From positions 3,999-67,998 of the forward strand of contig JBBQRB010000001.1 in the NCBI GenBank assembly GCA_038215315.1: 64,000 nt of DNA, given 5' to 3'. Source of the stretch: Pseudanabaenales cyanobacterium (GTDB lineage: Bacteria > Cyanobacteriota > Cyanobacteriia > Pseudanabaenales > Pseudanabaenaceae). Positions 2,381-44,407 of this stretch are shown piece after piece (within the stretch, counting starts at the first letter, position 1; every line of letters begins with the position of its first letter). The notes under the pieces are model-generated. The model searched no databases. It was not told the DNA's origin and worked only from the letters and a program-made list of their open reading frames with translations. The position numbers were made by a program, and so were the translations under genes.

Positions 2381-2548
2381 GTATAGCCGTCGCCAGTCTT
2401 GTATCAGGACATAAAACCCAAAAGAGGGAGGCGGCGCTTCGCGTCGCATCCCTCTTTTAGGTTTCACAGCGCTTTGCGCTCAAACCCGAACTAGTAGGAT
2501 TTTTGAAAGGGTTGCGAAGCAACCCTTTCAAAAATCCTACTATGGTTA
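2381..2548. mobile_element. Tandem MITE-like palindromes (family-B left part plus family-C hairpin)
   Basis: TATAGCCGTCGCCAGTCTTG…CCCAAAAGAGGGAGGCGGCGC; ACAGCGCTTTGCGCTCAAACCCGAAC…TTTGAAAGGGTTGC-GAA-GCAACCCTTTCAAA; homologous to 21447 and 44303. Confidence 0.75.
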
Positions 2549-3187
2549 TCTTGATCGGAAATTCTGGAAACTTTGCAGCTTTTGGCGATAAATTAGTTCT
2601 AGTTGATTCCCAAACTTGATAAATAATTGAGACTGCTGATCTTGTAGAGCCAGAAATAAGCGATGAAAAGCTGATGTAAAGATCGCAATAATCAAGCCAG
2701 CCGCAGTAGTGATCAAGGCTTCCCCAATCCCCTGAGTCAGTGACCCCGACTTAGTATTTGCCGCCACATCGCCAAGCCTCAAAGAACCAAATGAAATAAT
2801 CAAGCCAGTCACAGTCCCCAATAAACCTAACAAAGGTGCAAGAGTAATGATTGCTTCCAGTAACTTTTCGCCCTTGAGCATTCCCACTAACTCTTCATCA
2901 GCCGTGCTTTCTAACGCTAGACGAAATAGTTCAGGATCTGGCTCTTTTAACGATAAGGGTGCATAAAGAAACCTACCAATGGGAACCTTGCTAGATTGCT
3001 CCGCGAATTCTTTGGCTAGGTTGAGATCTTCACGGGCGATCGCCAAAATACTCTCAGCCGTTTTCTGCTCTTGACGTAAAATACCAAACCAAAAGATGAG
3101 ACGCTCCATGATGCCTGCCAAGGCAAGCACCGAAAGAAGTATGAGTGGGTACATGATCACCCCACCAGCCTTGATCAAATCAATCAC
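2546..3187 (-). CDS. MotA/TolQ/ExbB proton channel family protein
   Basis: [14 protein letters not shown] and [17 protein letters not shown] motifs; three TM segments. Confidence 0.92.
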
Positions 3188-3563
3188 TGGGGTCTGACTC
3201 CTTCTCTTCGCGTTCTCTACTTAGTTGATTAATCAACGACAAAACTTTAACTCCACGCTCAAAAGAACGATCTTCATTGAACACTATTTCTGGAACTCGT
3301 CGCAGAGCAAGTCTCTGACCGACCTCACGCTTAATAAAGCCTGATGCCGAAGCCAAAGCCTCCATAGTCTGTTGACGGGCTTCTTCAGTGCCATAAATGC
3401 TGACAAAAATCTTGACGTGCTGTAAATCTCCCGATACTTCCGCATCCGTGACACTAACCATGCCCATACCGACTCGGTCATCTTTAATATCTTTCAGCAA
3501 CATATTGCTGACTTCTCGCTTAATTAGTTCGGCGACACGAGCAACTCGTCTTGTAGTAGCCAT
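3180..3563 (-). CDS. rbfA: Ribosome-binding factor A
   Basis: [19 protein letters not shown]…[13 protein letters not shown]…LRRVPEIVF; start placed at ATG 3563. Confidence 0.95.
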
Positions 3564-3673
3564 AGATTTCATTTACACAGTTCAAGTGTAATTCTAGTGT
3601 GATTTTGAGAATATTTCTTGAGATGTTGTTTATAAACTTTCTCAAAGCCTACATTCAGTCTAACTTTGCTGAG

Positions 3674-3985
3674 CTATCGGCTCTCATAGGAGCGGCAATC
3701 TTGACAGGGCCCGTCGGGATTGATCGCGCAACGGATATAGGGCGATCGCGCATTATACTTACAGCTAATTTTACCAATCACATAACCAAATCCATCAATA
3801 CGAGTCATATCGGCTGGCGGTAAAGCTTTAAGCTGTGATGACATGGGCAAGATTATCTCTGAGTTGACTTGACGCTGATTGGCTTGAAATCGATGCAGCA
3901 TCCACAGAGATAGGACTGGCGGCATAATACCTAAAAATAAAATGATAACGATGTCTAACATCATAATGTTTAACATTTGTTGCAC
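3674..3985 (-). CDS. Cyanobacterial membrane protein with Cys-rich C-terminus (DUF6464-like)
   Basis: N-terminal TM; IGxxSCKYNARSPYIRCAINPDGPCQDC motif. Confidence 0.7.
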   Translation of the reverse strand: MQQMLNIMMLDIVIILFLGIMPPVLSLWMLHRFQANQRQVNSEIILPMSSQLKALPPADMTRIDGFGYVIGKISCKYNARSPYIRCAINPDGPCQDCRSYESR

Positions 3986-3998
3986 GTTTACTTAGTGT

Positions 3999-4202
3999 CT
4001 AGGCTATGTCTAGTCCTAGCATCGCTCTCAGCACCAGCGATAAACCAATAAATCCGCTAACTAAGGCTGTGATCGTAGCGATCGCAGTAACAGGCTTTTG
4101 CAGTAGGGGAAGCATCGGGGCGATGACGATAGACAAAACTCCACCAGTAATTAGTGCGAGGAATTTAGGGTAGCGAAGCAAATTGAGAATAAAGCTTTTC
4201 AT
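3999..4202 (-). CDS. ycf33: Ycf33 / DUF751 family small membrane protein
   Basis: NLLRYPKFL…LRAMLGL pattern; two TM segments; upstream of rbfA. Confidence 0.8.
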   Translation of the reverse strand: MKSFILNLLRYPKFLALITGGVLSIVIAPMLPLLQKPVTAIATITALVSGFIGLSLVLRAMLGLDIA

Positions 4203-4321
4203 TAGTAATTTTTTGTGATCGAGTCTAAGGAATTATTCAACTGATCACAAATATAGCGTTTTCTAAATCTAATAGAGAATAATTACGAACCAATGCCGCA
4301 CGCTGCGCGTGCGCCATTGGT

Positions 4322-4413
4322 TACTCCCTTCTCAGTGAAAGATTAGCGGCGCGAAGCGCCGCACCGCTAATTCTTGGTTTTTAAATGCGTATTTTTATAC
4401 TGGGAAGGGAGTA
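4322..4413. mobile_element. Family-D MITE with TIRs and flanking TA
   Basis: TA-CTCCCTTCTCAGT…ACTGGGAAGGGAG-TA; closely similar to 42194-42284. Confidence 0.85.
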
Positions 4414-4414
4414 T

Positions 4415-5212
4415 CTATGTCTGTAGGCATTTGGTGTCAACTGGAGGCAGTATTTTTGTTGGATTATTTTGCAAATGCTTACTATGCAGGCGATACCAAG
4501 GAGTCATCGGATATTCATGATGTTCCCAATGATAATGTCCAAAATTATAACAACTCACAAAAGACCAGAAAATCATTAAAGTATTTCTCTCTAGTCTCGG
4601 TGAGAAATTGGGGTTGTTATAAATTTGACGATGGGGTAAATAAGTACCAAAGAAAAATAATTGTAGAGAGCTAAGTACCAATGGGACTAACCAAAAAAGA
4701 ATTAAATTTATAAATGAGACATTACTGAAAAAAATTAATCCCCAAAAGATTACACTCATATTTACCAAGAAAATCAATAGCGATCGCATTGGGAAATATT
4801 CGCGAATAAATTTAAAGTACCAAAACACAGGATGGGAAACACTGCCATGAAAATCAGGATCACCAATTTGAGATGGAAAACGGTGATGCTCAGTATGGTT
4901 TTTACGACAATGGTTATAAGGCAGAAATCCGTAAATGGTAACAGCTATATTCCCAAAAAAATCGTTCAGACGGCGATCGTGGGGAATTAGATTGCTATGC
5001 ATAGAGTCGTGGGCAACAATAAACATTCCTGTGTGCAGATATGAGCGTCCTAAAATCGCTAAAGTCAGCCATATCCAAGATGTCTCTGAGACTGAAATCG
5101 TAATCAGCTTAACGAGACTAATTAACCACAGACTAAAGATAATTAAAACCGAGAACAAACCCAACCAATCATCGGATTGAAATGTCTTTTGGGGCGATTT
5201 AAACATTTGCAT
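4415..5212 (-). CDS. crtW: Beta-carotene ketolase CrtW (fatty-acid desaturase superfamily)
   Basis: His boxes HDSMH, HTEHHRFP, HWEHHEYP; LQLFFFGTYLPH; adjacent to ocp. Confidence 0.85.
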   Translation of the reverse strand: MQMFKSPQKTFQSDDWLGLFSVLIIFSLWLISLVKLITISVSETSWIWLTLAILGRSYLHTGMFIVAHDSMHSNLIPHDRRLNDFFGNIAVTIYGFLPYNHCRKNHTEHHRFPSQIGDPDFHGSVSHPVFWYFKFIREYFPMRSLLIFLVNMSVIFWGLIFFSNVSFINLILFWLVPLVLSSLQLFFFGTYLPHRQIYNNPNFSPRLERNTLMIFWSFVSCYNFGHYHWEHHEYPMTPWYRLHSKHLQNNPTKILPPVDTKCLQT

Positions 5213-5380
5213 ATTCTCAAAAGGCAGGGGTCAAATTTTAGAACTTGGGGCTTGGTCATAAACTAGAGGACTAATTTTTGATGATGTGACTTTGCCTTAT
5301 TATCGAAATCTTGTAAAGATATATTAAGGATAATACATTTATCGATTTTTTTGCCACTGAAATTCAGTGTAAATGCCTGT

Positions 5381-5456
5381 AAAACCAAACCTGATAACTG
5401 ATTGCTGACGCAAAGCGTCAGCAATCAGGTTTGGTTTTTATTTGTACGACTACTTA
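5381..5456. repeat. Palindromic element ending in CTACTTA that overlaps the ocp stop codon
   Basis: AAAACCAAACCTGAT…TGCTGACGC-AAA-GCGTCAGCAATCAGGTTTGGTTTT…ACTACTTA. Confidence 0.75.
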
Positions 5457-6413
5457 ACGCGCCAAATTTAGTAACTCTTTGGGAGAAGCGAGTAAATCGA
5501 TCGCTACGAAGAAAATCTTGTTGCTAGGGTCAAGCAAGAATCTCCAAGCAATATTCATACCAACACCTGAACCAAACCAAGGGGTTTGCACCTTTCCAGT
5601 GATTTTAATTTGGATGTAACCACCATCAGCCTGCTCAGATACTCCTCTCTCAGGAACAAGCACTAAATTTTGACATTCTTCCCTAAAGAATTTCATAATT
5701 GCATCCCTACCAACAACTGGTCTTTGGAAAGGAGGCTGAAGAGCGCCATCTACTAAGAATAGGTCAATCAAAACATCAAAATCATTAGCATTCATGTTGT
5801 TCATGTATGACAAGATCGTGGGATTATCAACCCCTTCGATCGCTACCTCTGTCCGATTAGACATTTCTCTAGGTGGGGAAACTGGCTCAGCAACTAAAGT
5901 GTACTCACCCAACTTTTTGGGGTCATAGCCCATATCTAAAACTGAATTACGCAAAATTGTAATTTGTTGTCCTGGTTCAAGGCTTTTTAGGGTTTCTAAA
6001 ACGGCTGAAGCATTGGCTGAGAGACGGTATCCTGCAGGAATTGGGGCAACAATACCTTGCTCCATCCATTGACCAAGCTGATACCAAAATCCTAGCTTTA
6101 TATTCTGTGACCAAATGGCATAGGTGCGGCAGATTGGAGTGTCAGCACGGTTAGCTAGGTCACACATGACCTGAGTTTGTTGCTGAAAACTCATTTTCTT
6201 GATTTCATTCAAAGTCAACTCAGCCAACTGCATACTAGCCGCTCCAGGAGCTGCGATCGTTACAGTTTTACCCATTTCTAAATAAGTAAACCAAATCCAA
6301 GCCAGTTGATCTTCAGGGCTAAGTTGATTAAATCTTGCGGTCGTAGCTGGGACAACGTCAGCAGCAAGGGTGCTAGGGAAAATACTTCTGGCTGAGTTAA
6401 TTGTGTAGGTCAT
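5454..6413 (-). CDS. ocp: Orange carotenoid protein (OCP1-like)
   Basis: Full N-terminal plus NTF2-like C-terminal domains; ADVVPATTARF, NIKLGFWY, GKVQTPWFG, IDLLASPKELL. Confidence 0.97.
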   Translation of the reverse strand: MTYTINSARSIFPSTLAADVVPATTARFNQLSPEDQLAWIWFTYLEMGKTVTIAAPGAASMQLAELTLNEIKKMSFQQQTQVMCDLANRADTPICRTYAIWSQNIKLGFWYQLGQWMEQGIVAPIPAGYRLSANASAVLETLKSLEPGQQITILRNSVLDMGYDPKKLGEYTLVAEPVSPPREMSNRTEVAIEGVDNPTILSYMNNMNANDFDVLIDLFLVDGALQPPFQRPVVGRDAIMKFFREECQNLVLVPERGVSEQADGGYIQIKITGKVQTPWFGSGVGMNIAWRFLLDPSNKIFFVAIDLLASPKELLNLAR

Positions 6414-6859
6414 AAGAGATATTAGAGGATTTGGCTGAAGTGTCTAAGTTTTTTAATCTTGGTAGATTTAGCTGTCGCTACCTACATCAGGACGTACAAG
6501 AACTTAAGAATTGAATTACGGCGCTTGCTGCCCCAACTCATGTTCTGGGTTTGTGTCCCAAGTTGATTTGCGACAGATTGAAATCAATGTATAAGTTGAA
6601 ATTCAAGAGACAATAATAATTTACTCTATTGATATTGTCGTGATTTCTTTACATTTATCTACTCACACGAAGAGTACGTTACAAAACCTCTAAGGGTAGA
6701 TATTGGTCAGGCATCAAGAGCTTAGCAGGGTTACAGCGCTTCGCACTTTCTTAAAACCCAAGAAGACTTTTGAAAGTCTTCTCATACCACCACATGAAAT
6801 TCATAGATATTTTCGATCAAACAAACTGCAAGAGAATTTTTAAAAGCGCTGCTTTGCAA

Positions 6860-6966
6860 TAAGTAGATGAGCATAATTAAGCCCAAAGCCCAAAAGAGGG
6901 TAGCGGCGCGGAGCGCCGCTACCCTCTTTTGGGCTTTATGTCCTAACAAGACTGGCGACAGCTATA
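6860..6966. mobile_element. Chimeric MITE: family-A left end plus family-B core and right end
   Basis: TAAGTAGATGAGCATAATTAAGCCC…AGAGGGTAGCGGCGC-GGA-GCGCCGCTACCCTCT…CAAGACTGGCGACAGCTATA. Confidence 0.75.
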
Positions 6967-6984
6967 GCAACTATAAGTAAGTAT

Positions 6985-7089
6985 TACAGCCTGTTGAGGC
7001 TTTGAGTAGTACATAAAATTCTTTGAAAGTACCGCTTTGCGGCACTTTCAAAGAATTTTCTGGGTTTTATGATAGCGCAAAGCACTGTA
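6985..7089. mobile_element. Family-C MITE (TACAG…CTGTA termini)
   Basis: TACAGCCTGTTGAGGC…TTTGAAAGTACCGC-TTT-GCGGCACTTTCAAA…GCGCAAAGCACTGTA. Confidence 0.75.
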
Positions 7090-7130
7090 CTGTTTATATA
7101 TTGCCAATAGCCTCAAGACATGGAAAAAGG

Positions 7131-8054
7131 CTATGCCTTGACTTCATCGTTGTTAACGATAAACAAATCTTCAATATTTCTGAGCATTGCGCTACAAATA
7201 TTGTCTAGAGGTAAATCATTTGAATCATGACCAAAGGGATCTTCAATTTGGATGCCAATCTCCTCTATTCCCAGCAAAGTAAAGCTAATTAAGGTAACGA
7301 TTGGAGCGGTCATCCATTCTAATTGAGCAACCATTTGAAATGGAAGTGATAGGCAGTAAATTAATAGTAATTGCTTAAGGTGGATTGCGTAGGCTAGAGG
7401 GATTGGAGTTTTGAGGATACGCTCGCAGATACCGACAACATCAACCATTTGATTTAAAAGTTGAATCATATTTCCCAGTTGATAGCGATCTAGCTTTTCT
7501 TGTTGAAATTGTCTTTGCAAATAGCTACTAATCCAAAATCCTATTTCCAAAGGAGGGTGATTCATCGTTTTTAGTCGATTAAATTGTTCTGCTGATAGAA
7601 CTGCTTCAAGTTCGGCATTAATTGGTTCCGATCGCAAATGCAGTTTCAAGGCGATCGCAAAAGCTGGTAATAGCTTTACAGCAGCAATTTTCCCCTGATG
7701 ATCTTCAATATCCTGTTCAGTAATAGCTACTAATATTTGCCGTGATAGGTTGCGTACTGTATTCACTAGGGTTCCCCAAGCTTTGCGCCCTTCCCAAAAT
7801 CTCTCATAAGCTGTGTTAGTCCGAAAAACTAGTAACAGCCCTAAAACAATGTTAGAAATAAGGCTACCGAAAACTGGCAAATGCACCCGAAAATTTAGGG
7901 CGTGCAAAATATAAATTATGAGACCAAATAATCCACAAAATAGCGATCGCGGTAATACTTCAGGAATAACTGAGCCTCGCCAACTAAAGGCAAGTCGAAA
8001 CCAGCTATCTTTTATCAACCAATTTTTTATCAACCAATTTTTTCTTGCGTGCAT
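7131..8054 (-). CDS. Bestrophin family ion channel
   Basis: LLLVFRTNTAYERFWEGRKAWG; ERILKTPIP; IEDPFGHDSNDLPL. Confidence 0.92.
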   Translation of the reverse strand: MHARKNWLIKNWLIKDSWFRLAFSWRGSVIPEVLPRSLFCGLFGLIIYILHALNFRVHLPVFGSLISNIVLGLLLVFRTNTAYERFWEGRKAWGTLVNTVRNLSRQILVAITEQDIEDHQGKIAAVKLLPAFAIALKLHLRSEPINAELEAVLSAEQFNRLKTMNHPPLEIGFWISSYLQRQFQQEKLDRYQLGNMIQLLNQMVDVVGICERILKTPIPLAYAIHLKQLLLIYCLSLPFQMVAQLEWMTAPIVTLISFTLLGIEEIGIQIEDPFGHDSNDLPLDNICSAMLRNIEDLFIVNNDEVKA

Positions 8055-8134
8055 TATTACCTAACTAATATTTATGGTCAGGGTCGCTAGCGCTTGTCAT
8101 AAGCCGCCCCTATAGATAGATAGTGTATCGAACT

Positions 8135-8232
8135 TAAGTAGATAGGCGTAATAAAGCCCCAAAAGCAGTGGCACACGCTGCGCGTGCGCCACGGCTTTTG
8201 GGGCTTTAAGGTTTCTTTTGCGTACCTACTTA
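8135..8232. mobile_element. Family-A MITE (TAAGTAG…CTACTTA TIRs); terminal TTA is the kinase stop codon
   Basis: TAAGTAGATAGGCG…GGCACACGC-TGC-GCGTGCGCC…GCGTACCTACTTA. Confidence 0.85.
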
Positions 8233-9789: not shown

Positions 9790-9869
9790 AGTTGCATTAT
9801 AAATTAGAGACTGCCCAAAGATACTTGCTTCCTAGTCTAGAATTGATGGCGCGGGATCTTGTAACAACC

Positions 9870-9949
9870 AAAACTCAAAAAGCTGTGGCGCACGCGCAGC
9901 GTGCGCCACAGCTTTTTGGGTTTTGAGGGTTCTTTTGCCTTCCTACTTA
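9870..9949. mobile_element. Family-A MITE copy
   Basis: AAAAAGCTGTGGCGCACGC-GCA-GCGTGCGCCACAGCTTTTTGGG…CCTACTTA. Confidence 0.8.
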
Positions 9950-9953
9950 ATGT

Positions 9954-11060: not shown

Positions 11061-11089
11061 GGTTCTCGCGGCTTCGCATCAGTTCGATA

Positions 11090-11148
11090 TAAACAAGATA
11101 CTGGATAGTGGCGGCGTTTTGCGCCGCCACTATCCAGTATCTTGTTTA
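11090..11148. repeat. Perfect 27-bp-stem palindrome with unique arms and GGCGGCG core
   Basis: TAAACAAGATACTGGATAGTGGCGGCG-TTTTG-CGCCGCCACTATCCAGTATCTTGTTTA. Confidence 0.9.
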
Positions 11149-11173
11149 GGTTTTTAACTTTAAGTATAAGTCC

Positions 11174-11225: not shown

Positions 11226-11230
11226 TCTAT

Positions 11231-17097: not shown

Positions 17098-17178
17098 TTA
17101 CAGCACTCTACGCTGATATAAAACCCAGAGAAAATTTTAAAAGTGGCGCTAAGCGCCACTTTTAAAATTTTCTCTGTA
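17098..17178. repeat. Family-C palindrome
   Basis: TACAGCAC…CAGAGAAAATTTTAAAAGTGGCGC-TAA-GCGCCACTTTTAAAATTTTCTCTG. Confidence 0.8.
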
Positions 17179-17421: not shown

Positions 17422-17505
17422 GAAAGTACTCGCAATCATATAAAATTTATAGCCATGTGGCTTTGCCACATGGCTATAAATTTTATTATTTCTGGTGCGG
17501 CGCTT

Positions 17506-18182: not shown

Positions 18183-18343
18183 CTATAAAAACCAAGAAAC
18201 GAGTTGCGGCGCAACTCGTTTCTTGGTTTTGTGTCCTAACAAGACTAGCTACGGCTATAAAACCCAGAGAAACTTTTGAAAGCGCGACTTCGCCGCGCTT
18301 TCAAAAATTTCTCCATACTATACCAATGCCTCAATAGGCTGTA
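18183..18343. mobile_element. Tandem family-B/family-C MITE-like palindromes
   Basis: AAAACCAAGAAACGAGTTGC-GGC-GCAACTCGTTTCTTGGTTTT…GCTATA; TTTTGAAAGCGCGACTTCGCCGCGCTTTCAAAA…CCTCAATAGGCTGTA. Confidence 0.75.
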
Positions 18344-21609: not shown

Positions 21610-23082
21610 ATGAGTAACTCTGCAAATTCCTTTGATCCTTCACAATACGATCTTACTCAGACTAAACTCACGCTCGGCGAAAAACTTGCCTATGGGACAG
21701 GAGACTTGGGTACAGCAATCACTACCAACCTGCTCTCATTCTTTTTACTGTTCTTTTTTACTAATGTTGCAGGGCTTGACCCCGCTCTCGCAGGCTTAGT
21801 ATTACTAATTGGCAAAGTTTTTGATGCCGTTAATGACCCAATTATTGGCGTACTCAGCGATCGCACTGAGTCAAAACTTGGGCGCAGACTGCCGTGGATG
21901 ATCTATGCAGCGATTCCCTTTGGGTTGTCTTTTTTTGCTCAGTGGCTTGTCCCTAGCAGCGACAAGATGGTTCTATTTTGGTATTACGTAGCGATCGGGA
22001 TTGTTTTTAATCTTTTTTTTACTGCCGTCAATCTGCCCTATACAGCGCTGACTCCTGAGATTACCCAAGACTATAACGAGCGCACTAGCCTAAATAGTTT
22101 TCGCTTTATGTTTTCCATTGGCGGCAGTATTGTTTCTCTATTTTTAGCCCAATTAATTTTTGCATTCTTTAAAGATCCTGCGCGACAGACCAGTGCTTGT
22201 GACACGGGTGGAGCGCAATATATTGCGCTCGGTGCAGCCTGTGCAATCATTTCGAGTATTTCCATCTATGCCTGTGTATGGGGAATTAAAAGAAGGGCGA
22301 TCGCTAGCGATCGGCAACGCATTCGCAACAAATCTCTCGAAGATAGTCAAGAACTAGGCATCATCGAGCAGCTCAAAATTGTGTTTAACAATCGTCCTTT
22401 TCTTTTTGTGATCGGGATTTACTTCTGCTCATGGCTCGCTCTACAAATTACGGCTTCCATAATTCCCTACTTTGTGGTCAATTGGATGAAGTTAAAAGAG
22501 AGTGACTTTATTATGGTGACGATCGCCGTTCAAGGTACTGCTCTAATAATGCTGCCTATATGGAGTGAAATTAGCAAAAAATTTGGCAAAAAGGCTGCCT
22601 ATTTTATGGGATCAGGAGTCTGGATTGTTGCCCAAGCGGGACTATTCTTCTTGCAGGAGGGACAGGTTGTGTTGTTGTATGCCTTCGCAATCATGGCGGG
22701 AGCGGGTATTTCCACGGCTTATCTGATTCCTTGGTCGATGATTCCCGATGTCACCGATCTTGATGAGCTAGAGACAGGGCAGCGCCGCGAAGGGATTTTC
22801 TATGCATTTATGGTGCTTTTGCAAAAGTTTGGATTAGCCGCAGGACTATTTTTGCTGGGTCAAGGGCTTGCCGTGGCTAAGTTTCAAGAAAATGTCGCCT
22901 GTCAACCCACGCCGATTCAGCCTGAATCAGCTCTATTTGCGATTCGTTTAGCGATCGGTCCTCTGCCCACGATCGCCTTGGTGATTGGTTTGGGACTAGC
23001 CTATTTCTATCCAATTACCCGTGAAGTACATACCGAAATTTTGATGCGTCTGCATCAAAAGCGGAGCCAAAGTAATCAATAA
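21610..23082 (+). CDS. MFS transporter, MelB/GPH family
   Basis: KLAYGTGD; DAVNDPIIGVLSDRT..GRRLPW; PWSMIPDV; RREGIFY. Confidence 0.9.
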   Translation: MSNSANSFDPSQYDLTQTKLTLGEKLAYGTGDLGTAITTNLLSFFLLFFFTNVAGLDPALAGLVLLIGKVFDAVNDPIIGVLSDRTESKLGRRLPWMIYAAIPFGLSFFAQWLVPSSDKMVLFWYYVAIGIVFNLFFTAVNLPYTALTPEITQDYNERTSLNSFRFMFSIGGSIVSLFLAQLIFAFFKDPARQTSACDTGGAQYIALGAACAIISSISIYACVWGIKRRAIASDRQRIRNKSLEDSQELGIIEQLKIVFNNRPFLFVIGIYFCSWLALQITASIIPYFVVNWMKLKESDFIMVTIAVQGTALIMLPIWSEISKKFGKKAAYFMGSGVWIVAQAGLFFLQEGQVVLLYAFAIMAGAGISTAYLIPWSMIPDVTDLDELETGQRREGIFYAFMVLLQKFGLAAGLFLLGQGLAVAKFQENVACQPTPIQPESALFAIRLAIGPLPTIALVIGLGLAYFYPITREVHTEILMRLHQKRSQSNQ

Positions 23083-23201
23083 GGGCGCTAAGCGCCCTTA
23101 TTGATTCTCAGTAAATAAATCAAAGCCGAAAAGAGAGAGGCGGCGCGGTGCGCCGCCTCTCTCTTTTCGGCTTTATGCCAGCGCAAAGCGCTGTGGCTAT
23201 A
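23074..23201. repeat. Two perfect palindromes between convergent genes; the first overlaps the MFS stop
   Basis: AATCAATAAGGGCGC-TAA-GCGCCCTTATTGATT; AAAGCCGAAAAGAGAGAGGCGGCGC-GGT-GCGCCGCCTCTCTCTTTTCGGCTTT. Confidence 0.85.
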
Positions 23202-27889: not shown

Positions 27890-27953
27890 AAAACCCAAAA
27901 AGCTGTGGCGCACGCTGCGCGTGCGCCACAGCTTTTTGGGTTTTAGCTACCTA
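27890..27953. mobile_element. Family-A palindrome abutting the stop of the WD40 gene
   Basis: AAAACCCAAAAAGCTGTGGCGCACGCTGCGCGTGCGCCACAGCTTTTTGGGTTTT. Confidence 0.85.
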
Positions 27954-33273: not shown

Positions 33274-33461
33274 CACAGCACTTTGCGATTTCTTAAAACC
33301 CAAGAAAATCTTGAAAAGGCTGGCTTCGCCAGCCTTTTCAAGATTTTCTTGGGCTATACAAGACCTCAACAGGCTACATAGCTTTCGCAGCCTAAAGATC
33401 TGTGGTGCACGCGCAACGTGCGCCACAGCTCTTTAGGCTTTTGGGTTTGCCTATCTACTTA
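33274..33461. mobile_element. Tandem family-C and family-A MITEs
   Basis: CCCAAGAAAATCTTGAAAAGGCTGGC-TTC-GCCAGCCTTTTCAAGATTTTCTTGGG; CTGTGGTGCACGCGCAACGTGCGCCACAG…CTATCTACTTA. Confidence 0.8.
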
Positions 33462-35565: not shown

Positions 35566-35599
35566 TACTAATTCACAAAAGTGTTGGCACGCTATATGT

Positions 35600-35704
35600 T
35601 CAGTAGATAGGCATAATAAAAACCAATACCCAAAAAGCTGTGGCACACGCTGCGCGTGTGCCACCGCTGTTTGGGGGTTAAGGTTTCTTTTTCCTACCTA
35701 CTTA
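35600..35704. mobile_element. Family-A MITE
   Basis: TCAGTAGATAGGCATAAT…GCTGTGGCACACGCTGCGCGTGTGCCAC…CCTACCTACTTA. Confidence 0.8.
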
Positions 35705-35908
35705 GTAGCCAAAAACTGAACTTTAACTGGCTTATCCATACAAAACATATAATCTTAATGTTCATACTTACTTGAACAATGGGTAAGCTTGTGCTAATTT
35801 GCAAGCCTCAAACTATAATGTTTCATAAGAAGTTTTTCTAAGGAATTCTTTAGTATTTTGGTATTGTAAATGTAACCGAGATTTGATGTGCAGCACAGAG
35901 GATAGATA

Positions 35909-36997: not shown

Positions 36998-37005
36998 CTG
37001 TTGCA

Positions 37006-37959: not shown

Positions 37960-38049
37960 GTATAATCAAAACCCAAAAAGCTGTAGCGCACGCTGAGCGT
38001 GCGCTACAGCCTTTTGGGTTTTAAGGTTTCTTATGCCTAGCCACTCATA
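37953..38049. mobile_element. Family-A MITE supplying the last codon and stop of queG
   Basis: GC-TAAGTAGGTATAATC…GCTGTAGCGCACGCTGAGCGTGCGCTACAGC…. Confidence 0.8.
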
Positions 38050-38069
38050 AATGTTAGGATTCACAAAGA

Positions 38070-38174
38070 TATAGCGCTTTGCGCCTTCTTGAAAACCAAA
38101 CAAATTTTCTAAAAGGCTGGCTTCGCCAGCCTTTTAGGAAATTTGTTAAATTAAACAAAGCCTCAATAGGCTGT
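38070..38174. mobile_element. Family-C MITE
   Basis: TATAGCGCTTTGCGC…CTAAAAGGCTGGC-TTC-GCCAGCCTTTTAG…CCTCAATAGGCTGTA. Confidence 0.8.
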
Positions 38175-38192
38175 AATGTGGGCAAAGTAATT

Positions 38193-39026
38193 ATGGGAAA
38201 TATTGCATACTTAGATTGTCCGACAGGAATCGCTGGTGATATGTGTTTGGGAGCCTTAGTAAGTGCAGGTGTTCCCCTATCATATTTGCAAGACATCGTG
38301 CATCAATTAGGGCTTGATCGTGAAGTAAAGCTATGGACAGAACTCGTCCATCGTAGTGGTATTGAAGCAACTAAGTTACACGTTGAGTTACTAAACTATG
38401 GCGGTGAAGAACCTCCAACTACGGAACATGATCAATCACATTCCCATAGCCACGAACATTCCCATAAGCATGAGCATTCTCTCTCAAAACATCGCCATTT
38501 GCCTGATATTGAGAAGCTAATTAGTGGCGCAAAATTGCCAAAACAGATTGAAGTTTGGAGCTTGGCAATATTTAGAGAACTAGCGATCGCAGAAGGATCA
38601 GTGCATGGCATTCCACCCGAAGCAGTCCATTTTCATGAAGTGGGAGCGATTGATGCGATCGTTGATATTGTTTGTACTTGTGCTGGCTTGGCTTGGCTAG
38701 AAATCGATAAAATTTACTGCTCAGCCCTGCCAATAGGGGGCGGCTATGTGGACTGCGATCATGGCAAGATGCCAGTGCCAGCACCTGCAACCCTCAAGCT
38801 ATGGGAAATGCACGAAGTCACAACCTTTGATAATGGCATTCGCAAGGAACTAGTCACACCAACAGGCGCAGCGATCGCAGTCACTCTTTGTGAGCAGTTT
38901 GGCGAATATCCATTAATGAAAATCAAAAAGGTAGGGCTAGGAGCAGGCACGCAAGAGTTAGAAATCCCCAATACTCTGCGTCTATGGATTGGCAAAAGTA
39001 AGAAAAAAGATAAAAAAAAAGACTAA
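38193..39026 (+). CDS. larC: Nickel pincer cofactor biosynthesis protein LarC, N-terminal part (LarC1)
   Basis: YLDCPTGIAGDMCLGAL; His-rich tract; VHFHEVGAIDAIVD; HGKMPVPAPAT; ELVTPTGAA. Confidence 0.9.
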   Translation: MGNIAYLDCPTGIAGDMCLGALVSAGVPLSYLQDIVHQLGLDREVKLWTELVHRSGIEATKLHVELLNYGGEEPPTTEHDQSHSHSHEHSHKHEHSLSKHRHLPDIEKLISGAKLPKQIEVWSLAIFRELAIAEGSVHGIPPEAVHFHEVGAIDAIVDIVCTCAGLAWLEIDKIYCSALPIGGGYVDCDHGKMPVPAPATLKLWEMHEVTTFDNGIRKELVTPTGAAIAVTLCEQFGEYPLMKIKKVGLGAGTQELEIPNTLRLWIGKSKKKDKKKD

Positions 39027-39040
39027 TTCACCATAAAAGA

Positions 39041-39547
39041 ATGAGCAGTACAGAGTGCCGCCTATTTTTACCTTTAGATAATGATTCTATTTATAAAGTA
39101 GAAACAGTTGTAATCTTAGAAACTCAAGTCGATGACATGACATCTCAGGCGATCGCCTACACGACAGAAAAGCTATTACAAAATGATGCTCTAGATGTCT
39201 ACACACAGGCGATCACGATGAAAAAATCTCGTTGTGGAACCTTAATTACAGTCATTTGCGATCGCGATCATCAATCCATTTGTGAGCAGATTCTCTTTCA
39301 AGAAACCAGTACTTTAGGAATTAGGTTCCGATTACAAGAGCGAAAAATTCTTGACCGCCAAATATGCGAAGTTATGACTGAGTATGGCAGTGCAAGGGTA
39401 AAGATTGCCAGACGAGAGGGTTTCAAGACAGTGCAACCAGAATATGACGACTGCGCTAAACTAGCGCGATCGCAAAATATTCCACTAACTCAAATTCAGC
39501 AAGCTGTGTTTCTAGCTGGTTTAGCACTACTCAAATCCAAAAGTTAA
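39041..39547 (+). CDS. larC: LarC C-terminal part (LarC2), probably fused to LarC1 via a -1 shift
   Basis: LETQVDD; MKKSR; ETSTLGIR; YGSARVK; QPEYDDC; frame open back to 39014. Confidence 0.88.
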   Translation: MSSTECRLFLPLDNDSIYKVETVVILETQVDDMTSQAIAYTTEKLLQNDALDVYTQAITMKKSRCGTLITVICDRDHQSICEQILFQETSTLGIRFRLQERKILDRQICEVMTEYGSARVKIARREGFKTVQPEYDDCAKLARSQNIPLTQIQQAVFLAGLALLKSKS

Positions 39548-40446
39548 CTTTTGGATTTCGCTTTGATTTTTTTGCGAATATGTCTTGCACCAGCGATCGC
39601 TCCTAACGTCAGCAAGCCACCAGTCGGCGAAAAATCAAAAGGAATTGGAGTCAAATCAACACTCCCAAGAGTAAACTCTCCACTGGCTTGACCAGAATTG
39701 TCACCCAAAAATACAAAGCTAGGTGTTGTGTAGGGATTAAAAGGCAGGGGAGGGTCACTAAGCGCTGGAGCAAAGGTATACTCAACGAGCAATCCACTCA
39801 AAATTGTGCTGACCGTTGTGGGAGAAGTAACTTCATCTAGCAAGTAATTACTACCTGAGACTGTTAATCTGTAATCCTTTAGGGCAGTAGTCGTGAACGC
39901 TGCTGAATTTGCTTCAGCTGTAAAATCAGATGACTGAGCAAAAATTTCACCCGCTCTAAATCCGAGTTCTATAGCGAAATTGTCACTACTGACAACAAGG
40001 ACACTAAAAACTGCTCGTGGATTGGTGTTGTCAACTTCACTGCCTACAGTATCCAACCTAAACTTGAAGTCAAGTGAATAGCCAGTAACTCGATTAAGAG
40101 TACCAGAATTAAAAATTGTGGTGTTAAAGAAATTACTTGTTGATGGGTTGAAGTTACTGTATCCAGAATATTCAGCCAAATTTGCGGCGGTGTTTAACCT
40201 GACTCCAACACCATTAATTACAGTCTGAGAAGTTGGGGTTGGAAAGGGGAAATTGCCAGCAGCATTGCATGGTGGGGTATTGGGAGCCAAAGTAGTACAG
40301 ATTGCTCCAGATCTAATAGCAGCTAATTGAGCGTCAGGAGTTTGATTAGCTGTGCCATTGTATAGATTAATCGCACTTACGTTACTGCTCAATCCTGAAA
40401 CAAAAAATACTGCACTAGCGATCGCTGAAGTCCAAAGAGGTCTCAT
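39544..40446 (-). CDS. Secreted surface protein with PEP-CTERM-like (PFE/PFD-CTERM) sorting signal
   Basis: Signal peptide; C-terminal TPIPFDFSPTGGLL, hydrophobic segment and basic tail; possibly a choice-of-anchor Y domain. Confidence 0.75.
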   Translation of the reverse strand: MRPLWTSAIASAVFFVSGLSSNVSAINLYNGTANQTPDAQLAAIRSGAICTTLAPNTPPCNAAGNFPFPTPTSQTVINGVGVRLNTAANLAEYSGYSNFNPSTSNFFNTTIFNSGTLNRVTGYSLDFKFRLDTVGSEVDNTNPRAVFSVLVVSSDNFAIELGFRAGEIFAQSSDFTAEANSAAFTTTALKDYRLTVSGSNYLLDEVTSPTTVSTILSGLLVEYTFAPALSDPPLPFNPYTTPSFVFLGDNSGQASGEFTLGSVDLTPIPFDFSPTGGLLTLGAIAGARHIRKKIKAKSKS

Positions 40447-40502
40447 AGATGTAATCCTTAGCTAAGTTAATTCAATTTCTGAAATTTCATACTTGATTGC
40501 AA

Positions 40503-41579
40503 TTATCTGCTGACTTTAGCAGCGATCGCTTTGGCAATCTCCTTTAAAGCTTTAGCCGATGCAGAATCAGGATGACCCAACACAATTGGTACACCGCGAT
40601 CGCCACCTTCGCGGAGACTGATTTCTAGAGGCACACAACCAAGTAAATCTACACCTAGCTCCTCAGAAGTCTTCTTACCACCACCAGAACCAAAAATATC
40701 GTATTGCTTGTTAGGGCTATCAGGAGGAATGAAATAGCTCATATTCTCGACAATCCCTAGAACAGGGATGCCCATATTTTGGAACATCTTCAAGCCTTTG
40801 CGCGAATCTAAAAGTGAAACCGTCTGCGGAGTGGTGACAATTACAGCTCCTGCTAATGGCACAGACTGCGTAAGAGTCAATTGCGCGTCTCCCGTTCCTG
40901 GAGGCATATCGACAATCAAATAATCTAATTCGCCCCAATTTGCCTGATAAAGAAATTGGCGAATTACCCCATTGAGCATAGGTCCCCGCCAAACAACGGG
41001 CTGATCCTTCGCAATCAAAAATGCCATTGAGATCATCTTTACCCCATAGTTAAAGGCTGGCTCAACTACATCCGCTCCATTTTCTGCCTTAACTACCTTT
41101 ATTTGAGCAGACTCCATTCCCAACATCACAGGCACATTCGGACCGTAAATATCAGCATCAAGGATGCCCACCTTTGCGCCCATATCAGCTAGAGCAACCG
41201 CCACGTTCACCGCCACCGAAGTTTTGCCCACACCGCCTTTACCACTAGAAACGGCAAGAATGTACTTCACACCTTCAATGCCTTTTAATGAACTTGTAGG
41301 AGTCTCTGGTGTATTGATCACAGGACTATTGGCGATCACTTTGACCCATACATCTGTAACTTCAGCGATCGCTCTAATTGCAGTTTTACATTCTTGGATC
41401 AGCTCATCCCGATAGGGACTACTAGGATTGTCCATTAATAACGTGAAACTAACTACCCCATTAGCCTTGACCGTAATATCGCGCACCATCTCTGCTTCAA
41501 TAATGCTTTTTTGGCGATCGCGATCAATAATTGGGTTGAGTAAAGTTTGAATTGCTTGGACATTAGGTAAATCGGACAT
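40503..41579 (-). CDS. mrp: Mrp/ApbC/NBP35 Fe-S carrier ATPase
   Basis: SSGKGGVGKT; DADIYGPN; WRGPML; DMPPGTGDAQL; ENMSYF. Confidence 0.93.
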   Translation of the reverse strand: MSDLPNVQAIQTLLNPIIDRDRQKSIIEAEMVRDITVKANGVVSFTLLMDNPSSPYRDELIQECKTAIRAIAEVTDVWVKVIANSPVINTPETPTSSLKGIEGVKYILAVSSGKGGVGKTSVAVNVAVALADMGAKVGILDADIYGPNVPVMLGMESAQIKVVKAENGADVVEPAFNYGVKMISMAFLIAKDQPVVWRGPMLNGVIRQFLYQANWGELDYLIVDMPPGTGDAQLTLTQSVPLAGAVIVTTPQTVSLLDSRKGLKMFQNMGIPVLGIVENMSYFIPPDSPNKQYDIFGSGGGKKTSEELGVDLLGCVPLEISLREGGDRGVPIVLGHPDSASAKALKEIAKAIAAKVSR

Positions 41580-41722
41580 AACTTCAGATCTTAAAAATGC
41601 TGTGAAACTGCCAAGATTTTATTAAAGCTTAAATAAGAGCCAAAATGATTAACAAAGATTTATGCTTGTCAGTACATTAGTAGATCTAACTCACATTCAA
41701 ATATAGATAGTCAAAGAATTTT

Positions 41723-42046
41723 ATGAGCGAACAAGTAAGAGTTATTAGACCTTCTGGAAGGTTAGATGTTACGACAGCGGCTGAGTTTCGCCGTCAAGTT
41801 AGTGACATTGCTTCAGTGGCAAACCCTCCTAAATATTTATTAGTTGACCTACAAGAAATCACCTTTATGGACAGTTCGGGATTGGGCGCTTTGGTTTCTG
41901 CCCTAAAAGCATTTCGCAACAATAATGGGGAAATGGTAATTAGTGGCGCTAATGATCAAGTGCAGATGCTATTTGAGCTTACCAGCATGACCAAAATTTT
42001 TAAAATTTATACAACTGCTGACGAATTTAAAGCAACGCTAGATTAA
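41723..42046 (+). CDS. STAS-domain anti-sigma factor antagonist
   Basis: GRLD; ITFMDSSGLGALV. Confidence 0.92.
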   Translation: MSEQVRVIRPSGRLDVTTAAEFRRQVSDIASVANPPKYLLVDLQEITFMDSSGLGALVSALKAFRNNNGEMVISGANDQVQMLFELTSMTKIFKIYTTADEFKATLD

Positions 42047-42109
42047 TACCAAGTTAGAAAATGGCAACGCCATTTTCTAACTTAAAAACCCGAGAATTTT
42101 TTTGAGAAG

Positions 42110-42377
42110 CTATAAAAACCAAGAGTTGCGGTGCAAAGCGCCGCAACTCTTGGTTTTTAGTTTTGTCCAAACATTAACGGCTATACAGCCTATTACTCCC
42201 TTCCCAGTGAGAGATTAGCGGCGCTTCGCGCCGCACCGCTAATTCTTAGGTTTTAATATTTATTCTTATACTGGGAAGGGAGTAAGACTTTAAGGAATAC
42301 AGAGAAATTTTTGAAAGTGTTGCTTCGCGCCACTTTCAAAAATTTCTCTGGGTTTTATGACAGCGCAAAGTGCTGTA
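42110..42377. mobile_element. Composite of family-B and family-C elements, with a family-D MITE nested in the family-C copy
   Basis: AAAAACCAAGAGTTGCGGTGC-AAA-GCGCCGCAACTCTTGGTTTTT…GCTATA; TACAGCCTAT[TA…TA]AGACTT…TTTGAAAGTG…CACTTTCAAAA…GTGCTGTA. Confidence 0.8.
42194..42284. mobile_element. Family-D MITE with perfect TIRs and TA duplication
   Basis: TA-CTCCCTTCCCAGT…ACTGGGAAGGGAG-TA. Confidence 0.88.
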
Positions 42378-42524
42378 GCTATATTGAGAATCTATAATTT
42401 CAAGATTTTTAATGATTTATAGGAAATATTTTCAAAATTCAGTCGCTAATCTAAAGTGACTGCGCTAAGATATATGTGGGTAAGAGTTTTTAGATTGTAC
42501 GTTTGTTTTCAATATTGACAGTTA

Positions 42525-42598
42525 TTTTCTGTTTGTTTTTAACAGCCTCTCTCCAAAATCTTTATCTCTACACATCTCTGACCGTTAAATTAAGTATT
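42525..42598 (+). promoter_or_regulatory. Possible conserved rbp 5'-UTR boxes
   Basis: TTTGTTTTTAAC and TCTCTCCAAAA resemble boxes described upstream of cold-regulated cyanobacterial rbp genes; imperfect match. Confidence 0.4.
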
Positions 42599-42919
42599 AT
42601 GTCTATTTATGTTGGTAACCTCTCCTACGATGTTACAGAAGATGATTTGAAAGGCGTATTTGCAGAATATGGCAAAATTACCCGCGTTCATTTACCTATC
42701 GACCGTGAATCTGGTCGTCCTCGTGGTTTCGCTTTTGTAGAAATGACTGCGGAAAATGAGGAAGATGCAGCGATTGAAGCTCTAGATGAAGCTGAGTGGA
42801 TGGGTCGTTCGCTCAAGGTAAACAAGGCTAAGCCTCGTGAAAGCTCTGATTCCTTCGGCGGCGGTGGCGGTCGAGGTGGATTTAGAGGCGGCGGCGGCGG
42901 TGGCGGCGGTCGTTATTAA
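42599..42919 (+). CDS. rbp: RRM RNA-binding protein with Gly-rich tail (Rbp family)
   Basis: MSIYVGNLSY (RNP2); RGFAFVEM (RNP1); GGGG tail; start ATG 42599. Confidence 0.95.
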   Translation: MSIYVGNLSYDVTEDDLKGVFAEYGKITRVHLPIDRESGRPRGFAFVEMTAENEEDAAIEALDEAEWMGRSLKVNKAKPRESSDSFGGGGGRGGFRGGGGGGGGRY

Positions 42920-42923
42920 ACGC

Positions 42924-42966
42924 AAATAAAAAGAGGGGGTGTTACTTACACTCCCTCTTTTTATTT
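42924..42966. terminator. Bidirectional terminator
   Basis: AAATAAAAAGAGGGGGTGT…ACACTCCCTCTTTTTATTT between convergent genes. Confidence 0.7.
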
Positions 42967-43356
42967 GTGCTTACCTCTTTGCATAGCAGCAGCATCGCCA
43001 ACTGTGCCAAGATTTCTAATAACTTGAAACTTTCTCGCTTCTTCTAACTTTCCTAAGTCATTGTAGTTAACCCAAGCAATACAATCAACTGGGCAGGTGT
43101 CGATCGCTTCTTGTACTAATTCCTCTTGGTCGCCATCTTGAGCAATGACTCTAGCCCGTCCATGATCTTCCTCTAAAAAGAAAGTTTCACGCGCTACATA
43201 AGCACAGTGACCGCAGCCAATACAGACCGTTTCGTCTACAAAGATCGCATCTTGCCGCAAGTCACCACCCAGTTCAGGTTCAAAGCCAGAGCGATCAAGC
43301 ATCTCTGACTTTAAATCCAGATCTGAAGTTTTAGTATCTACAGATACTTTATCCAT
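42961..43356 (-). CDS. Ferredoxin (Fer4_13 type)
   Basis: VDETVCIGCGHC…AIDTCPVDCI. Confidence 0.9.
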   Translation of the reverse strand: MDKVSVDTKTSDLDLKSEMLDRSGFEPELGGDLRQDAIFVDETVCIGCGHCAYVARETFFLEEDHGRARVIAQDGDQEELVQEAIDTCPVDCIAWVNYNDLGKLEEARKFQVIRNLGTVGDAAAMQRGKHK

Positions 43357-43735
43357 GCCAGCGCTGAAGGACTAAGCGTACAGAACCATCATCTTGTACC
43401 TTTTGCTCAGAAAGTTCAAAGCCTTGCTCGTTTGACTCGCTCATGACTGTAGCGATCGCGTAGCGTTGTGTCACCTTATTTAAAAAGCTTTCGACAGTCC
43501 ATGGTTGCTGCCAAAACTGCATATCGGTGACTAAAGCATATTCAGAACCATTCCACTGAAAGCCAACGTCATAGCCATTTTCTTGCTGGATCACGACTTC
43601 GGCGATCGCGGTTGTACCTTGATGACCTCGCATGGGAGCATCGCCAGATTTCCAATCAACACCTAAAGCAGTTAGGGCAGTTTGGAGAGGCTCAAGGCTA
43701 CGGATTTGGGTTTTTACTTGGCTAAAATGTGACAT
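43349..43735 (-). CDS. ycf35: Ycf35 / DUF1257 family protein
   Basis: MSHFSQVKTQI…DVGFQWNG..Y.LV.D..FW…VTQRYA. Confidence 0.88.
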   Translation of the reverse strand: MSHFSQVKTQIRSLEPLQTALTALGVDWKSGDAPMRGHQGTTAIAEVVIQQENGYDVGFQWNGSEYALVTDMQFWQQPWTVESFLNKVTQRYAIATVMSESNEQGFELSEQKVQDDGSVRLVLQRWHG

Positions 43736-43859
43736 GGCAGTACCTTAACTTTTATGTGAACAGTGAATCCGCTAAAAGAAATTTATCGGAACAAATGCTA
43801 TACAGTGCGCCGCAATTAATCGCGTCAATATACTTACTATAGCAAGACTAAATAAAACA

Positions 43860-43927
43860 CAGAACCCAAAAAGCTGTGGCGCACGCGCAGCGTGCGCCAC
43901 AGCTTTTTGGGTTTGCCTAACTACTTA
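43860..43927. mobile_element. Family-A MITE; terminal TTA is the DUF2997 gene stop
   Basis: AACCCAAAAAGCTGTGGCGCACGCGCAGCGTGCGCCACAGCTTTTTGGGTT…AACTACTTA. Confidence 0.85.
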
Positions 43928-44158
43928 CCACTGGCTAAAGCTAGAGTTGTCATCACCTGATGCATAGTCGAGTTGTACAGCTGACTGAGATACGTCCCGT
44001 TGCCTAGCAAAATTTTCAGAAGTAAGTTCGCTACAAACTACCACTCCCAACTTTGCTTCGATCTTTGCCGTTACATCTGCACAGCTAGCTCCAATGATGC
44101 CAGTGACTCGCTCTTCGACTCGACCATCTGAATAAATAATAAATTCCAGAGTTTCCAT
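43925..44158 (-). CDS. DUF2997 family protein
   Basis: METLEFIIYSDGRVEERVTGIIGASC…IEAKLG; upstream of ycf35. Confidence 0.85.
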   Translation of the reverse strand: METLEFIIYSDGRVEERVTGIIGASCADVTAKIEAKLGVVVCSELTSENFARQRDVSQSAVQLDYASGDDNSSFSQW

Positions 44159-44302
44159 GCTGGCTCTAGTTATTGAGTTATTGAATTAATTAGTAGTTTG
44201 ACGTAAGGCTCATATAAACGTCAAGGATTTACGATTAATCAAAATACCAAAGGCTCTGGTTTTGGCACTTTAGTTTGGAGCAAGCCCCTAAGCGCCGCCT
44301 AT

Positions 44303-44407
44303 TACAGCGCTTTGCGCTCAAACCCGAACCTGCAAGATTTTTAAAAGGGTTGCTTCGCAACCCTTTTAAAAATTTTACTATGGTTCGTTTGATCGTAAAT
44401 TGCTGTA
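44303..44407. mobile_element. Family-C-type MITE (TACAGC…GCTGTA)
   Basis: TACAGCGCTTTGCGCTCAAACCCGAAC…TTTAAAAGGGTTGC-TTC-GCAACCCTTTTAAA…TTGCTGTA. Confidence 0.85.

Follow-up and report, generated by a model that had tools for sequence, protein, structure and literature searches.

Reporter assays in Escherichia coli have established that template switching inverts hairpin loops and that this depends on polymerases or exonucleases, and template-switch inversion of loops and spacers is also already known from yeast, human and rRNA data. The listed footprints of template switching include inverted loops, compensated changes and inserted stem halves, the strongest being a compensating change combined with a loop inversion (PMC8794818), and both the homogenisation of inverted-repeat arms and the inversion of the spacer between them have been described (PMC8604942). 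In chloroplast genomes, small inversions associated with non-coding hairpins are a recurrent and familiar nuisance (e.g. PMC6824564). For dispersed bacterial palindromes, a study of repetitive extragenic palindromic (REP) sequences and the REPINs that they form does not mention loop orientation (PMC3116915), while heptamers of the form GCGNAGC are described as extraordinarily stable DNA mini-hairpins (PMC13037366, PMC3201870). Here we analyse the three-nucleotide loops of palindromic repeats in a stretch of 64,000 nucleotides (hereafter the window) from a Pseudanabaena metagenome-assembled genome (MAG; assembly GCA_038215315.1, contig JBBQRB010000001.1; G000:C1:3999-67998 in our numbering). 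We find that these loops flip to their exact reverse complement. The flips are real, local and recurrent, they occur in place at orthologous loci, and they are coupled with homogenisation of the hairpin arms.

Three pairs of repeats with inverted loops

The loops in question sit at the apexes of palindromes that are perfect or nearly so. Most of these palindromes lie in repeats of Pseudanabaena that resemble miniature inverted-repeat transposable elements (MITEs), and some are one-off intergenic hairpins. A first-pass annotation of the window, made from the sequence alone, had noticed three families (A, C and D) in which repeat copies with the same orientation carry loops that are reverse complements of each other. 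The strings that it quoted are all present, namely GATTAGCGGCGC-GAA-GCGCCGCACC in family D, GGGTTGC-GAA-GCAACCC in family C and CACGC-TGC-GCGTG in family A, as are their counterparts with TTC, TTC and GCA loops, respectively (Table 1; positions are those of the window unless prefixed, and the locus C1:1753 lies just upstream of it). The shared orientation within each pair also holds, in that the copies were recovered as direct repeats reaching beyond the palindrome. For family D these are 4321-4384 and 42193-42256 (direct repeat D18, 89% identity) and for family C 2466-2584 and 44304-44422 (D11, 79% over 119 nt), and direct repeat D2 includes the family A copies at 8121-8232 and 9838-9949. The description of the D apex needed one refinement: the loops are as claimed, and the unpaired A is the edge of a deletion, both window copies being a variant in which the hairpin, whose arms are normally 16 bp long, has lost 5 nt (TGCGG) from the left arm.

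Loops flip at orthologous loci

To compare the same hairpins between strains, we used a set of 25 conspecific contigs (L086-L110) that were retrieved through exact-protein look-ups, are 97.3-100% identical to the MAG and come from ENA, JGI and Logan, with at least 10 samples represented. Other Pseudanabaena species are 70-85% identical to the MAG, with intergenic regions that cannot be aligned, and were therefore unusable for same-locus comparison. In the orthologous-locus test, 22 loci whose hairpin stem is perfect over 11 bp or more gave 38 usable hairpin-by-contig comparisons. Ten of these comparisons, at 8 loci, were exact loop flips, and no other kind of loop difference occurred in the 38.

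Flips that change all three bases of the loop were seen at eight loci (2516, 5412, 17462, 35651, 58784 and C1:1753, plus the imperfect hairpins 18289 and 33413; Table 1). At 2516, which is one of the C copies singled out by the first-pass annotation, L107 carries TTC with all else identical, and L108 and L109 carry GAA. At C1:1753, TTC is found in L107 and L108. The D copy at 4322-4413 shows no difference in L096, L107 or L108. Flipped alleles are shared by independent assemblies, three in the case of 5412 and two each for 58784 and C1:1753. Flips are found even where contigs are 99.8-99.9% identical, and in L096 a single flipped loop accounts for 3 of the 7 mismatches over 5.5 kb. Nor are they confined to loops of the form GNA, as TTT/AAA, ACC/GGT and TAA/TTA also flip. 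Orientation is thus variable, not invariant, at orthologous loci, and the eight loci that flip between conspecific contigs support the proposal of the first-pass annotation that in-place micro-inversion by strand switching is frequent.

Table 1. Repeat copies and polymorphic hairpins of the window, with the alleles of conspecific contigs (L numbers)
Feature	Position	Strand	Loop (position)	Remarks
D-family MITE copy	4322-4413	+	GAA (4353-4355)	Termini TACTCCCTTC... and ...GGGAAGGGAGTA; 5-nt left-arm deletion in central hairpin
D-family MITE copy	42194-42284	+	TTC (42225-42227)	Co-oriented with the 4322 copy; same left-arm deletion
C-family composite element	2466-2584	+	GAA (2516-2518)	Main hairpin 2492-2542 with 24-bp perfect stem; polymorphic within the species
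C-family copy	44304-44422	+	TTC (44354-44356)	Co-oriented with 2466-2584; unchanged in L099 and L100
A-family MITE copy, degenerate	8121-8232	+	TGC (8179-8181)	Unchanged in L096
A-family MITE copy	9838-9949	+	GCA (9896-9898)	Oriented by the right-hand AAGGTTTCTTTTGC...ACTTA part
Stem-unique hairpin	5398-5428	.	AAA (5412-5414)	TTT in L096, L107 and L108; 7-nt insertion in L107 lengthens the stem
Stem-unique 22-bp hairpin	17440-17486	.	TTT (17462-17464)	AAA in L092, rest identical
Inverted 7-nt tract	18287-18293	.	TTC	ACTTCGC (TTC plus mismatched stem pair); GCGAAGT in L090; between GCGCG and CGCGC
Imperfect A-type hairpin	33400-33428	.	GCA (33413-33415)	TGC in L105, with both stem mismatches corrected to give a perfect palindrome
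A-family hairpin	35629-35675	.	TGC (35651-35653)	GCA in L105, with right arm rewritten to match left
Stem-unique 26-bp hairpin	58758-58812	.	GAA (58784-58786)	TTC in L086 and L089; GAA in L087
Ambiguous flip	17126-17176	.	TAA (17150-17152)	TTA in L090 and L092 (one-base difference); compensated stem change in L092
Ambiguous flip, A-family loop	37994-37996	.	TGA (37994-37996)	TCA in L105 (one-base difference)

Both orientations are common across the genome and the genus

The MAG comprises 3.16 Mb in 282 contigs, with 43% G+C and an estimated completeness of 88%. Its perfect hairpins with stems of at least 7 bp are dominated by those with a 3-nt loop (1729, vs ~450-570 for loops of 0, 1, 2, 4 or 6 nt), and a peak at a loop length of 5 consists of the same 3-nt-loop hairpins recounted one base pair further out. 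More than 1000 hairpins have perfect stems of 19-30 bp, with a peak at 24-26 bp, and among these GC-NNN-GC is a near-universal apex. The commonest apexes and their reverse complements are GCGAAGC and GCTTCGC (218 and 202), GCGCAGC and GCTGCGC (163 and 140), GCTTTGC and GCAAAGC (116 and 92), and GCGGAGC and GCTCCGC (62 and 41). The hairpins are predominantly intergenic, with 18 of about 810 GNA or TNC hairpins lying inside crude open reading frame calls. Their families were present in all 18 genomes searched from the same genus, and had no match in any of the 12 genomes searched from other families of the same class.

We assigned orientation genome-wide solely from sequence outside the palindrome (blastn with 80-nt left and right flanks). 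Co-oriented pairs with similar stems carry the same loop in 1183 cases and an exactly flipped loop in 964. Under a strict rule, by which both flanks must support one orientation and neither the opposite, the ratio is near 1:1 at all levels of flank identity, with 244 same and 203 flipped at identities of at least 95%. This tabulation of loops against their asymmetric flanks had been put forward by the first-pass annotation as a check on its proposal, and it came out in the proposal's favour.

Family A is a MITE of ~104 nt whose termini read TAAGTAGG... and ...CCTACTTA; its central hairpin measures 26 bp, and its right part (AAGGTTTCTTTTGC) is asymmetric. In the MITE of family D, the ends read TACTCCCTTCCCAGTG and CACTGGGAAGGGAGTA, the hairpin arms measure 16 bp, and the right part is asymmetric and rich in A+T. 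Both have the terminal inverted repeats, short length, lack of coding capacity and many copies expected of MITEs. Clustering placed 89 copies in family A (as family 0), with no inconsistent orientation among 1066 edges, and the loops of this family in the MAG are GCA in 42 cases and TGC in 40, with ACA in another 5. A similar balance of oriented loops, 23 GCA to 20 TGC, was found at 77 family A loci from other Pseudanabaena genomes, including that of the cultured strain PCC 7429. (The complement of the five ACA loops, TGT, is absent from the MAG and occurs in one copy in PCC 7429; this is a small sample.)

For family D there are 96 oriented matches to the long form. We tabulated its loops using regular expressions, with orientation taken from the internal asymmetry of the element. 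Full-length hairpins have TTC and GAA loops in 19 and 7 copies, ACC and GGT in 12 and 8, and TCC and GGA in 3 and 2, while copies with the 5-nt left-arm deletion have GAA in 7 and TTC in 3, with the deletion unmoved. By clustering, full-length D corresponds to family 3, which has 15 copies (12 TTC and 1 GAA). Another cluster, family 1, has 87 copies, with TTC loops in 47-48 and GAA loops in 22, and the consensus ...TTTTTGAAAGTGCCGC-TTC-GCGGCACTTTCAAAAA....

Orientation does not follow subfamily phylogeny, although the trees themselves carry little weight. On a family A tree built with the loop masked, we counted 26 loop changes, vs 27.7 ± 2.4 for shuffled labels; on a family 1 tree there were 17, vs 18.9 when shuffled. 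A control subfamily marker, the right-end variant, was also without signal on a tree built without its columns. The tree is therefore underpowered, and we relied instead on independence marker by marker and on the orthologous loci. Loop orientation is independent of the family A right-end variant (Fisher p = 0.37). Both orientations are found within a compensated G-C stem variant (5 and 4 copies) and within the D variant with the 5-nt deletion (7 and 3), and four family A copies with a shared mismatch on the right arm, 7 nt away from the loop, also carry both. With both orientations in every marker class, we can exclude a single ancient event for each family, barring a shuffling of markers by recombination. 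The pattern that the first-pass annotation had named as contradicting its proposal, in which orientation tracks subfamily phylogeny, is accordingly not what we find.

We also looked for strand effects. The GNA form of the loop lies on the sense strand in 159 cases and on the antisense strand in 167 (p = 0.70), so there is no transcription-strand bias, and from this balance there is no sign of selection on loop orientation. With respect to replichores, the A-type core in the complete genome G006 is split 21:19 between strands, with 20 runs observed vs ~21 expected, as in a random order. In a complete listing for a second genome, G002, a narrower A-type pattern is split 22:14, with an apparent weak clustering of 13 plus-strand and 3 minus-strand copies at 1.5-4.0 Mb vs 9 and 11 elsewhere. 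These data are underpowered for an effect of the replication strand and give no convincing signal of one.

Template switching as the probable cause

The anatomy of the events is informative about their origin. The majority of flips are pure, with identical stems and identical flanks over 30-60 nt. All are bounded by perfect arms of 5 to 27 bp, and the inverted tract is 3-7 nt long. At 18287-18293, a mismatched stem pair turns over together with the loop, which is therefore a true inversion and not a loop substitution. The deletion in family D stays on the left arm during flips, which limits the tract there to at most a 7-bp stem and the loop. At 5412, 17462 and 58784, the inner 14 nt of the stem have no other match in the 88%-complete assembly at up to one mismatch. 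Given three flipped hairpins with genome-unique stems, the template was therefore local, i.e., the hairpin itself, with no paralogous donor. The first-pass annotation had also considered recombination intrinsic to the copying of the elements. Since stem-unique hairpins outside any repeat family flip in place, such recombination is not needed.

The arms of the hairpins also change in concert. Compensated double changes in the stem are 25-60 times more frequent than expected by chance (40 vs 0.67 expected in family A, and 149 vs 6 in family 1). Between strains there are 7 compensated pairs, and at two loci (33413 and 35651) the stem was perfected alongside the flip.

We consider it about 75% probable that these observations reflect recurrent in-place inversion of the spacer by template switching, at roughly 40-160 times the per-site substitution rate. 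At such palindromes the short unpaired centre, which comprises the 3-nt loop and at times some of the neighbouring stem bases, is now and then exchanged in place for its reverse complement. In the proposed mechanism, a strand that is growing during replication or gap repair would leave its template inside one arm, pair with the same arm sequence as it occurs on the complementary strand, copy across the loop and then switch back. The process would correspond to template switching at an inverted repeat, as in the quasipalindrome model of Ripley, and hence to inverted-repeat spacer inversion. The same process would copy one arm onto the other, which could explain stems that are perfect yet specific to each copy, the conversion of single mutations into compensated pairs, and the lengthening of stems. 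Any hairpin seems able to flip.

The rate was estimated with a two-state model, for which the maximum-likelihood value is ~66 flips per hairpin per substitution per site, with a likelihood that is flat over ~40-160; the estimate is rough, as contigs were treated as independent and recombination was ignored. If flips are 40-160 times as frequent as substitutions at a site, old families should therefore sit at about 50:50. This expectation brings us to several points that, together with the roughness of the rate, weigh against template switching at this rate as the explanation. Family 1 is biased toward TTC in the orientation of the element (47:22, p = 0.0035), and so is full-length D (19:7). 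Biases of this kind would be expected to disappear if flipping were symmetric and proceeded at the estimated rate. The TTC and GAA classes of family 1 show no difference in divergence from the consensus. Direction-dependent rates, recent bursts of copying or selection are possible reasons for the excess of TTC. In addition, at C1:1753, the L107 contig differs by a 5-bp block that is changed on both arms, for which a single local switch is insufficient and which could be a conversion from a paralogue. Finally, the evidence for a strand switch by a polymerase, as opposed to a mis-annealing during break repair, consists of footprints in the sequences, and we infer both this step and the absolute rate from them.

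Alternative explanations

Break repair is the first alternative that we considered. An enzyme of the SbcCD type could cut an extruded hairpin, after which repair from the sister chromosome might go astray if the invading arm annealed to the wrong arm and took its copy of the loop from the opposite strand. The result would equal that of a replicative switch, with a different trigger. A search of 13 Pseudanabaena genomes, the MAG among them, found SbcD homologues in every one, the palindromes are long and perfect enough for extrusion, and the observed footprints fit this route equally well, such that sequence data do not distinguish it from a replicative switch. On the other hand, flips also occur where a mere 7-bp stem surrounds the loop, and such a stem would be a poor substrate for cruciform or hairpin cleavage. 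We therefore regard break repair as unlikely. The first-pass annotation had mentioned cruciform resolution as a further option, which seems unlikely and which the sequence data do not support as such. Resolution of a cruciform yields breaks capped by hairpins and not an inversion. The related idea that an absence of SbcCD explains the tolerance of palindromes was dropped, given that SbcD is present throughout the genus.

A broader and similarly doubtful idea is that the palindromes are themselves products of hairpin-templated copying, which would seed, perfect, lengthen and flip them. The origin and upkeep of the repeats would then be independent of a transposase. They would start at a small GC-NNN-GC apex and mirror adjacent local sequence, including gene ends, with hairpin formation driven by the stable GNA triloop, and orientation-dependent rates would give the 2:1 bias.

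Ectopic gene conversion would import a flipped loop as part of a patch from an oppositely oriented family member, as the palindromic stems align in either orientation. Potential donors abound, since a family comprises tens to hundreds of near-identical copies, which lie in either orientation in the genome, and the markers of family A are in linkage equilibrium. The 5-bp compensated block at C1:1753 in L107 moreover resembles the stems of other C-family copies, and conversion may contribute to complex events such as this one. However, the stems at 5412, 17462 and 58784 lack another match in the genome (at up to one mismatch in 14 nt of an assembly that is 88% complete), and stem variants specific to individual copies are left untouched by pure flips. 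Conversion as the general cause is thus improbable.

It is also conceivable, at long odds, that orientation is set when elements are copied or inserted, either because a tiny mobile apex inserts in either direction or because a hairpin intermediate in transposition randomises the loop. The elements are mobile, as seen from the insertion polymorphism of a D-type MITE in L086, and an orphan palindrome at 23074-23110 is absent from L090. A class of very small mobile repeats in cyanobacteria was reportedly proposed by Elhai et al. in 2008. Yet strains that are 99.8-99.9% identical differ by flips at one and the same locus, where their flanks and stems agree fully, and flips also affect hairpins that belong to no family and have unrelated stems and apexes. 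The ends of the inverted tract vary, and neither a target duplication nor a scar of excision and reinsertion was seen at the flipped loci.

An artefact of assembly or sequencing is highly improbable: palindromes do give ambiguous de Bruijn paths at small k, and the data are mostly metagenome assemblies, but the palindromes are at most 57 nt long, below the final k of 141 and the read length, the same flipped allele appears with both flanks correct in independent assemblies from different pipelines, both orientations occur in the genome of cultured PCC 7429, and imperfect stems consistently invert or become perfect. A programmed invertible switch (inverton), in which a pair of inverted repeats bound by a recombinase encloses tens to thousands of bp with a promoter or coding part, was rejected, as the tract is 3-7 nt long and intergenic, bears no relation to gene strand and flips in one-off hairpins too; recombinase genes were not searched for.

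Mobile elements and other palindromes

We also considered REP/REPIN sequences driven by a REP-associated tyrosine transposase (RAYT), and rejected this candidate since the sole Y1 transposase is flanked by a different palindrome, CAAGGGGCTTAAGCCCCTTG. This Y1 (IS200-like) domain, the only one found, is on G000:C11 (L111:964-2601) and occupies residues 180-279 of a 545-aa frame, the remainder of which matches the C-terminal domain of Type ISP restriction enzymes. Three plus three copies of the 20-nt palindrome flank the domain (L111:1254-1400 and 1917-2061), and the locus looks like an arrangement of the RAYT/REP type that lies in frame inside a restriction-gene remnant. As for transposases that could mobilise the MITEs, a DDE_3 fragment was the only one found in the MAG, and no search for an autonomous partner with matching ends was made. 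The family ends are compatible with a TA target duplication, and the insertion that is polymorphic in L086 is truncated on its right side. A literature search found no paper on Pseudanabaena MITEs.

The insertion in L086 (L086:10561-10630) is a short D-type MITE located directly 3′ of the hairpin at 58784, with its right terminal repeat truncated, and it is absent from the window (at 58815). The orphan palindrome at 23074-23110 has an arm that mirrors the end of an MFS gene (AATCAATAA and TTATTGATT around GGGCGC-TAA-GCGCCC). In L090, which is without it, AATCAATAA runs straight into ATCAAAGCC, so that a locally mirrored palindrome is polymorphic for presence and absence. Lastly, we compared window positions 27890-27945 with L002 (G012:C67), from the closest other species, whose flanks are ~77% identical. 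In L002, the hairpin at the corresponding intergenic position, which also lies downstream of this gene, is a different one, its stem being unrelated and its loop TTC. The hairpins may have been replaced, or have diverged beyond recognition, with their position kept.

Significance and comparison with known systems

What this case adds is a host that comprises a whole cyanobacterial genus and a large scale, the hairpins numbering more than 1000 and several of the MITE families being at equilibrium or close to it. It further adds loci that are directly polymorphic within one species, 8 of them in ~70 kb, together with a rough estimate of the relative rate. With some thousand independent palindromes whose loops occur in both states in wild populations, the genome could serve to gauge the rates of template switching, its tract lengths and strand effects outside laboratory reporters. 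The process would also provide a non-selective reason why hairpins of the REP and MITE types keep perfect stems despite drift in their sequence. In practical terms, a cluster of three base differences in a hairpin loop is one event, unfit for counting as substitutions or for use as a phylogenetic marker.

Several known systems share some of these properties. REP and REPIN sequences (Bertels and Rainey 2011, PMC3116915) are likewise short, non-coding, multi-copy intergenic palindromes in which compensatory changes across the hairpin are common. Unlike them, families A and D have the terminal inverted repeats typical of cut-and-paste MITEs. The Nezha MITEs of cyanobacteria and the small dispersed repeats described by Elhai are also short palindromic elements present in many intergenic copies. 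The apexes GCGAAGC, GCGCAGC and GCGGAGC, which are the commonest here, fit the GC-GNA-GC pattern of the d(GCGNAGC) mini-hairpins as a match in sequence, whereas flipping extends to loops that are not GNA. The terminal hairpins of parvoviruses (flip and flop) resemble our hairpins in that a palindrome exists in two reverse-complementary forms made by copying through a hairpin. Those hairpins, however, are the ends of a linear replicon and are resolved by a dedicated nickase in each round, while the palindromes described here are internal and flip rarely.

The small inversions of chloroplast genomes are similar in that loops, which are short and lie between perfect inverted repeats, flip repeatedly, and their orientation is not bound to phylogeny. 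They differ in that the loops in plastomes are usually longer and each hairpin is present as a single copy, not as the member of a repeat family. Plastids descend from cyanobacteria. Template-switch (quasipalindrome) mutations (PMC8794818, PMC8604942, PMC5453318) share with the flips an exact reverse complement of the spacer between inverted repeats, with its length kept. They also share stem mismatches that invert or are corrected, compensated double changes, extended stems, recurrence, a local template and variable tract ends. What differs here is that more than 1000 mostly non-coding hairpins of one bacterial genome are concerned, in families at about 50:50, and that the flips are polymorphic in a wild species. 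Loop flipping in Pseudanabaena thus fits as a clear natural example of a known copying error and not as a new kind of system.

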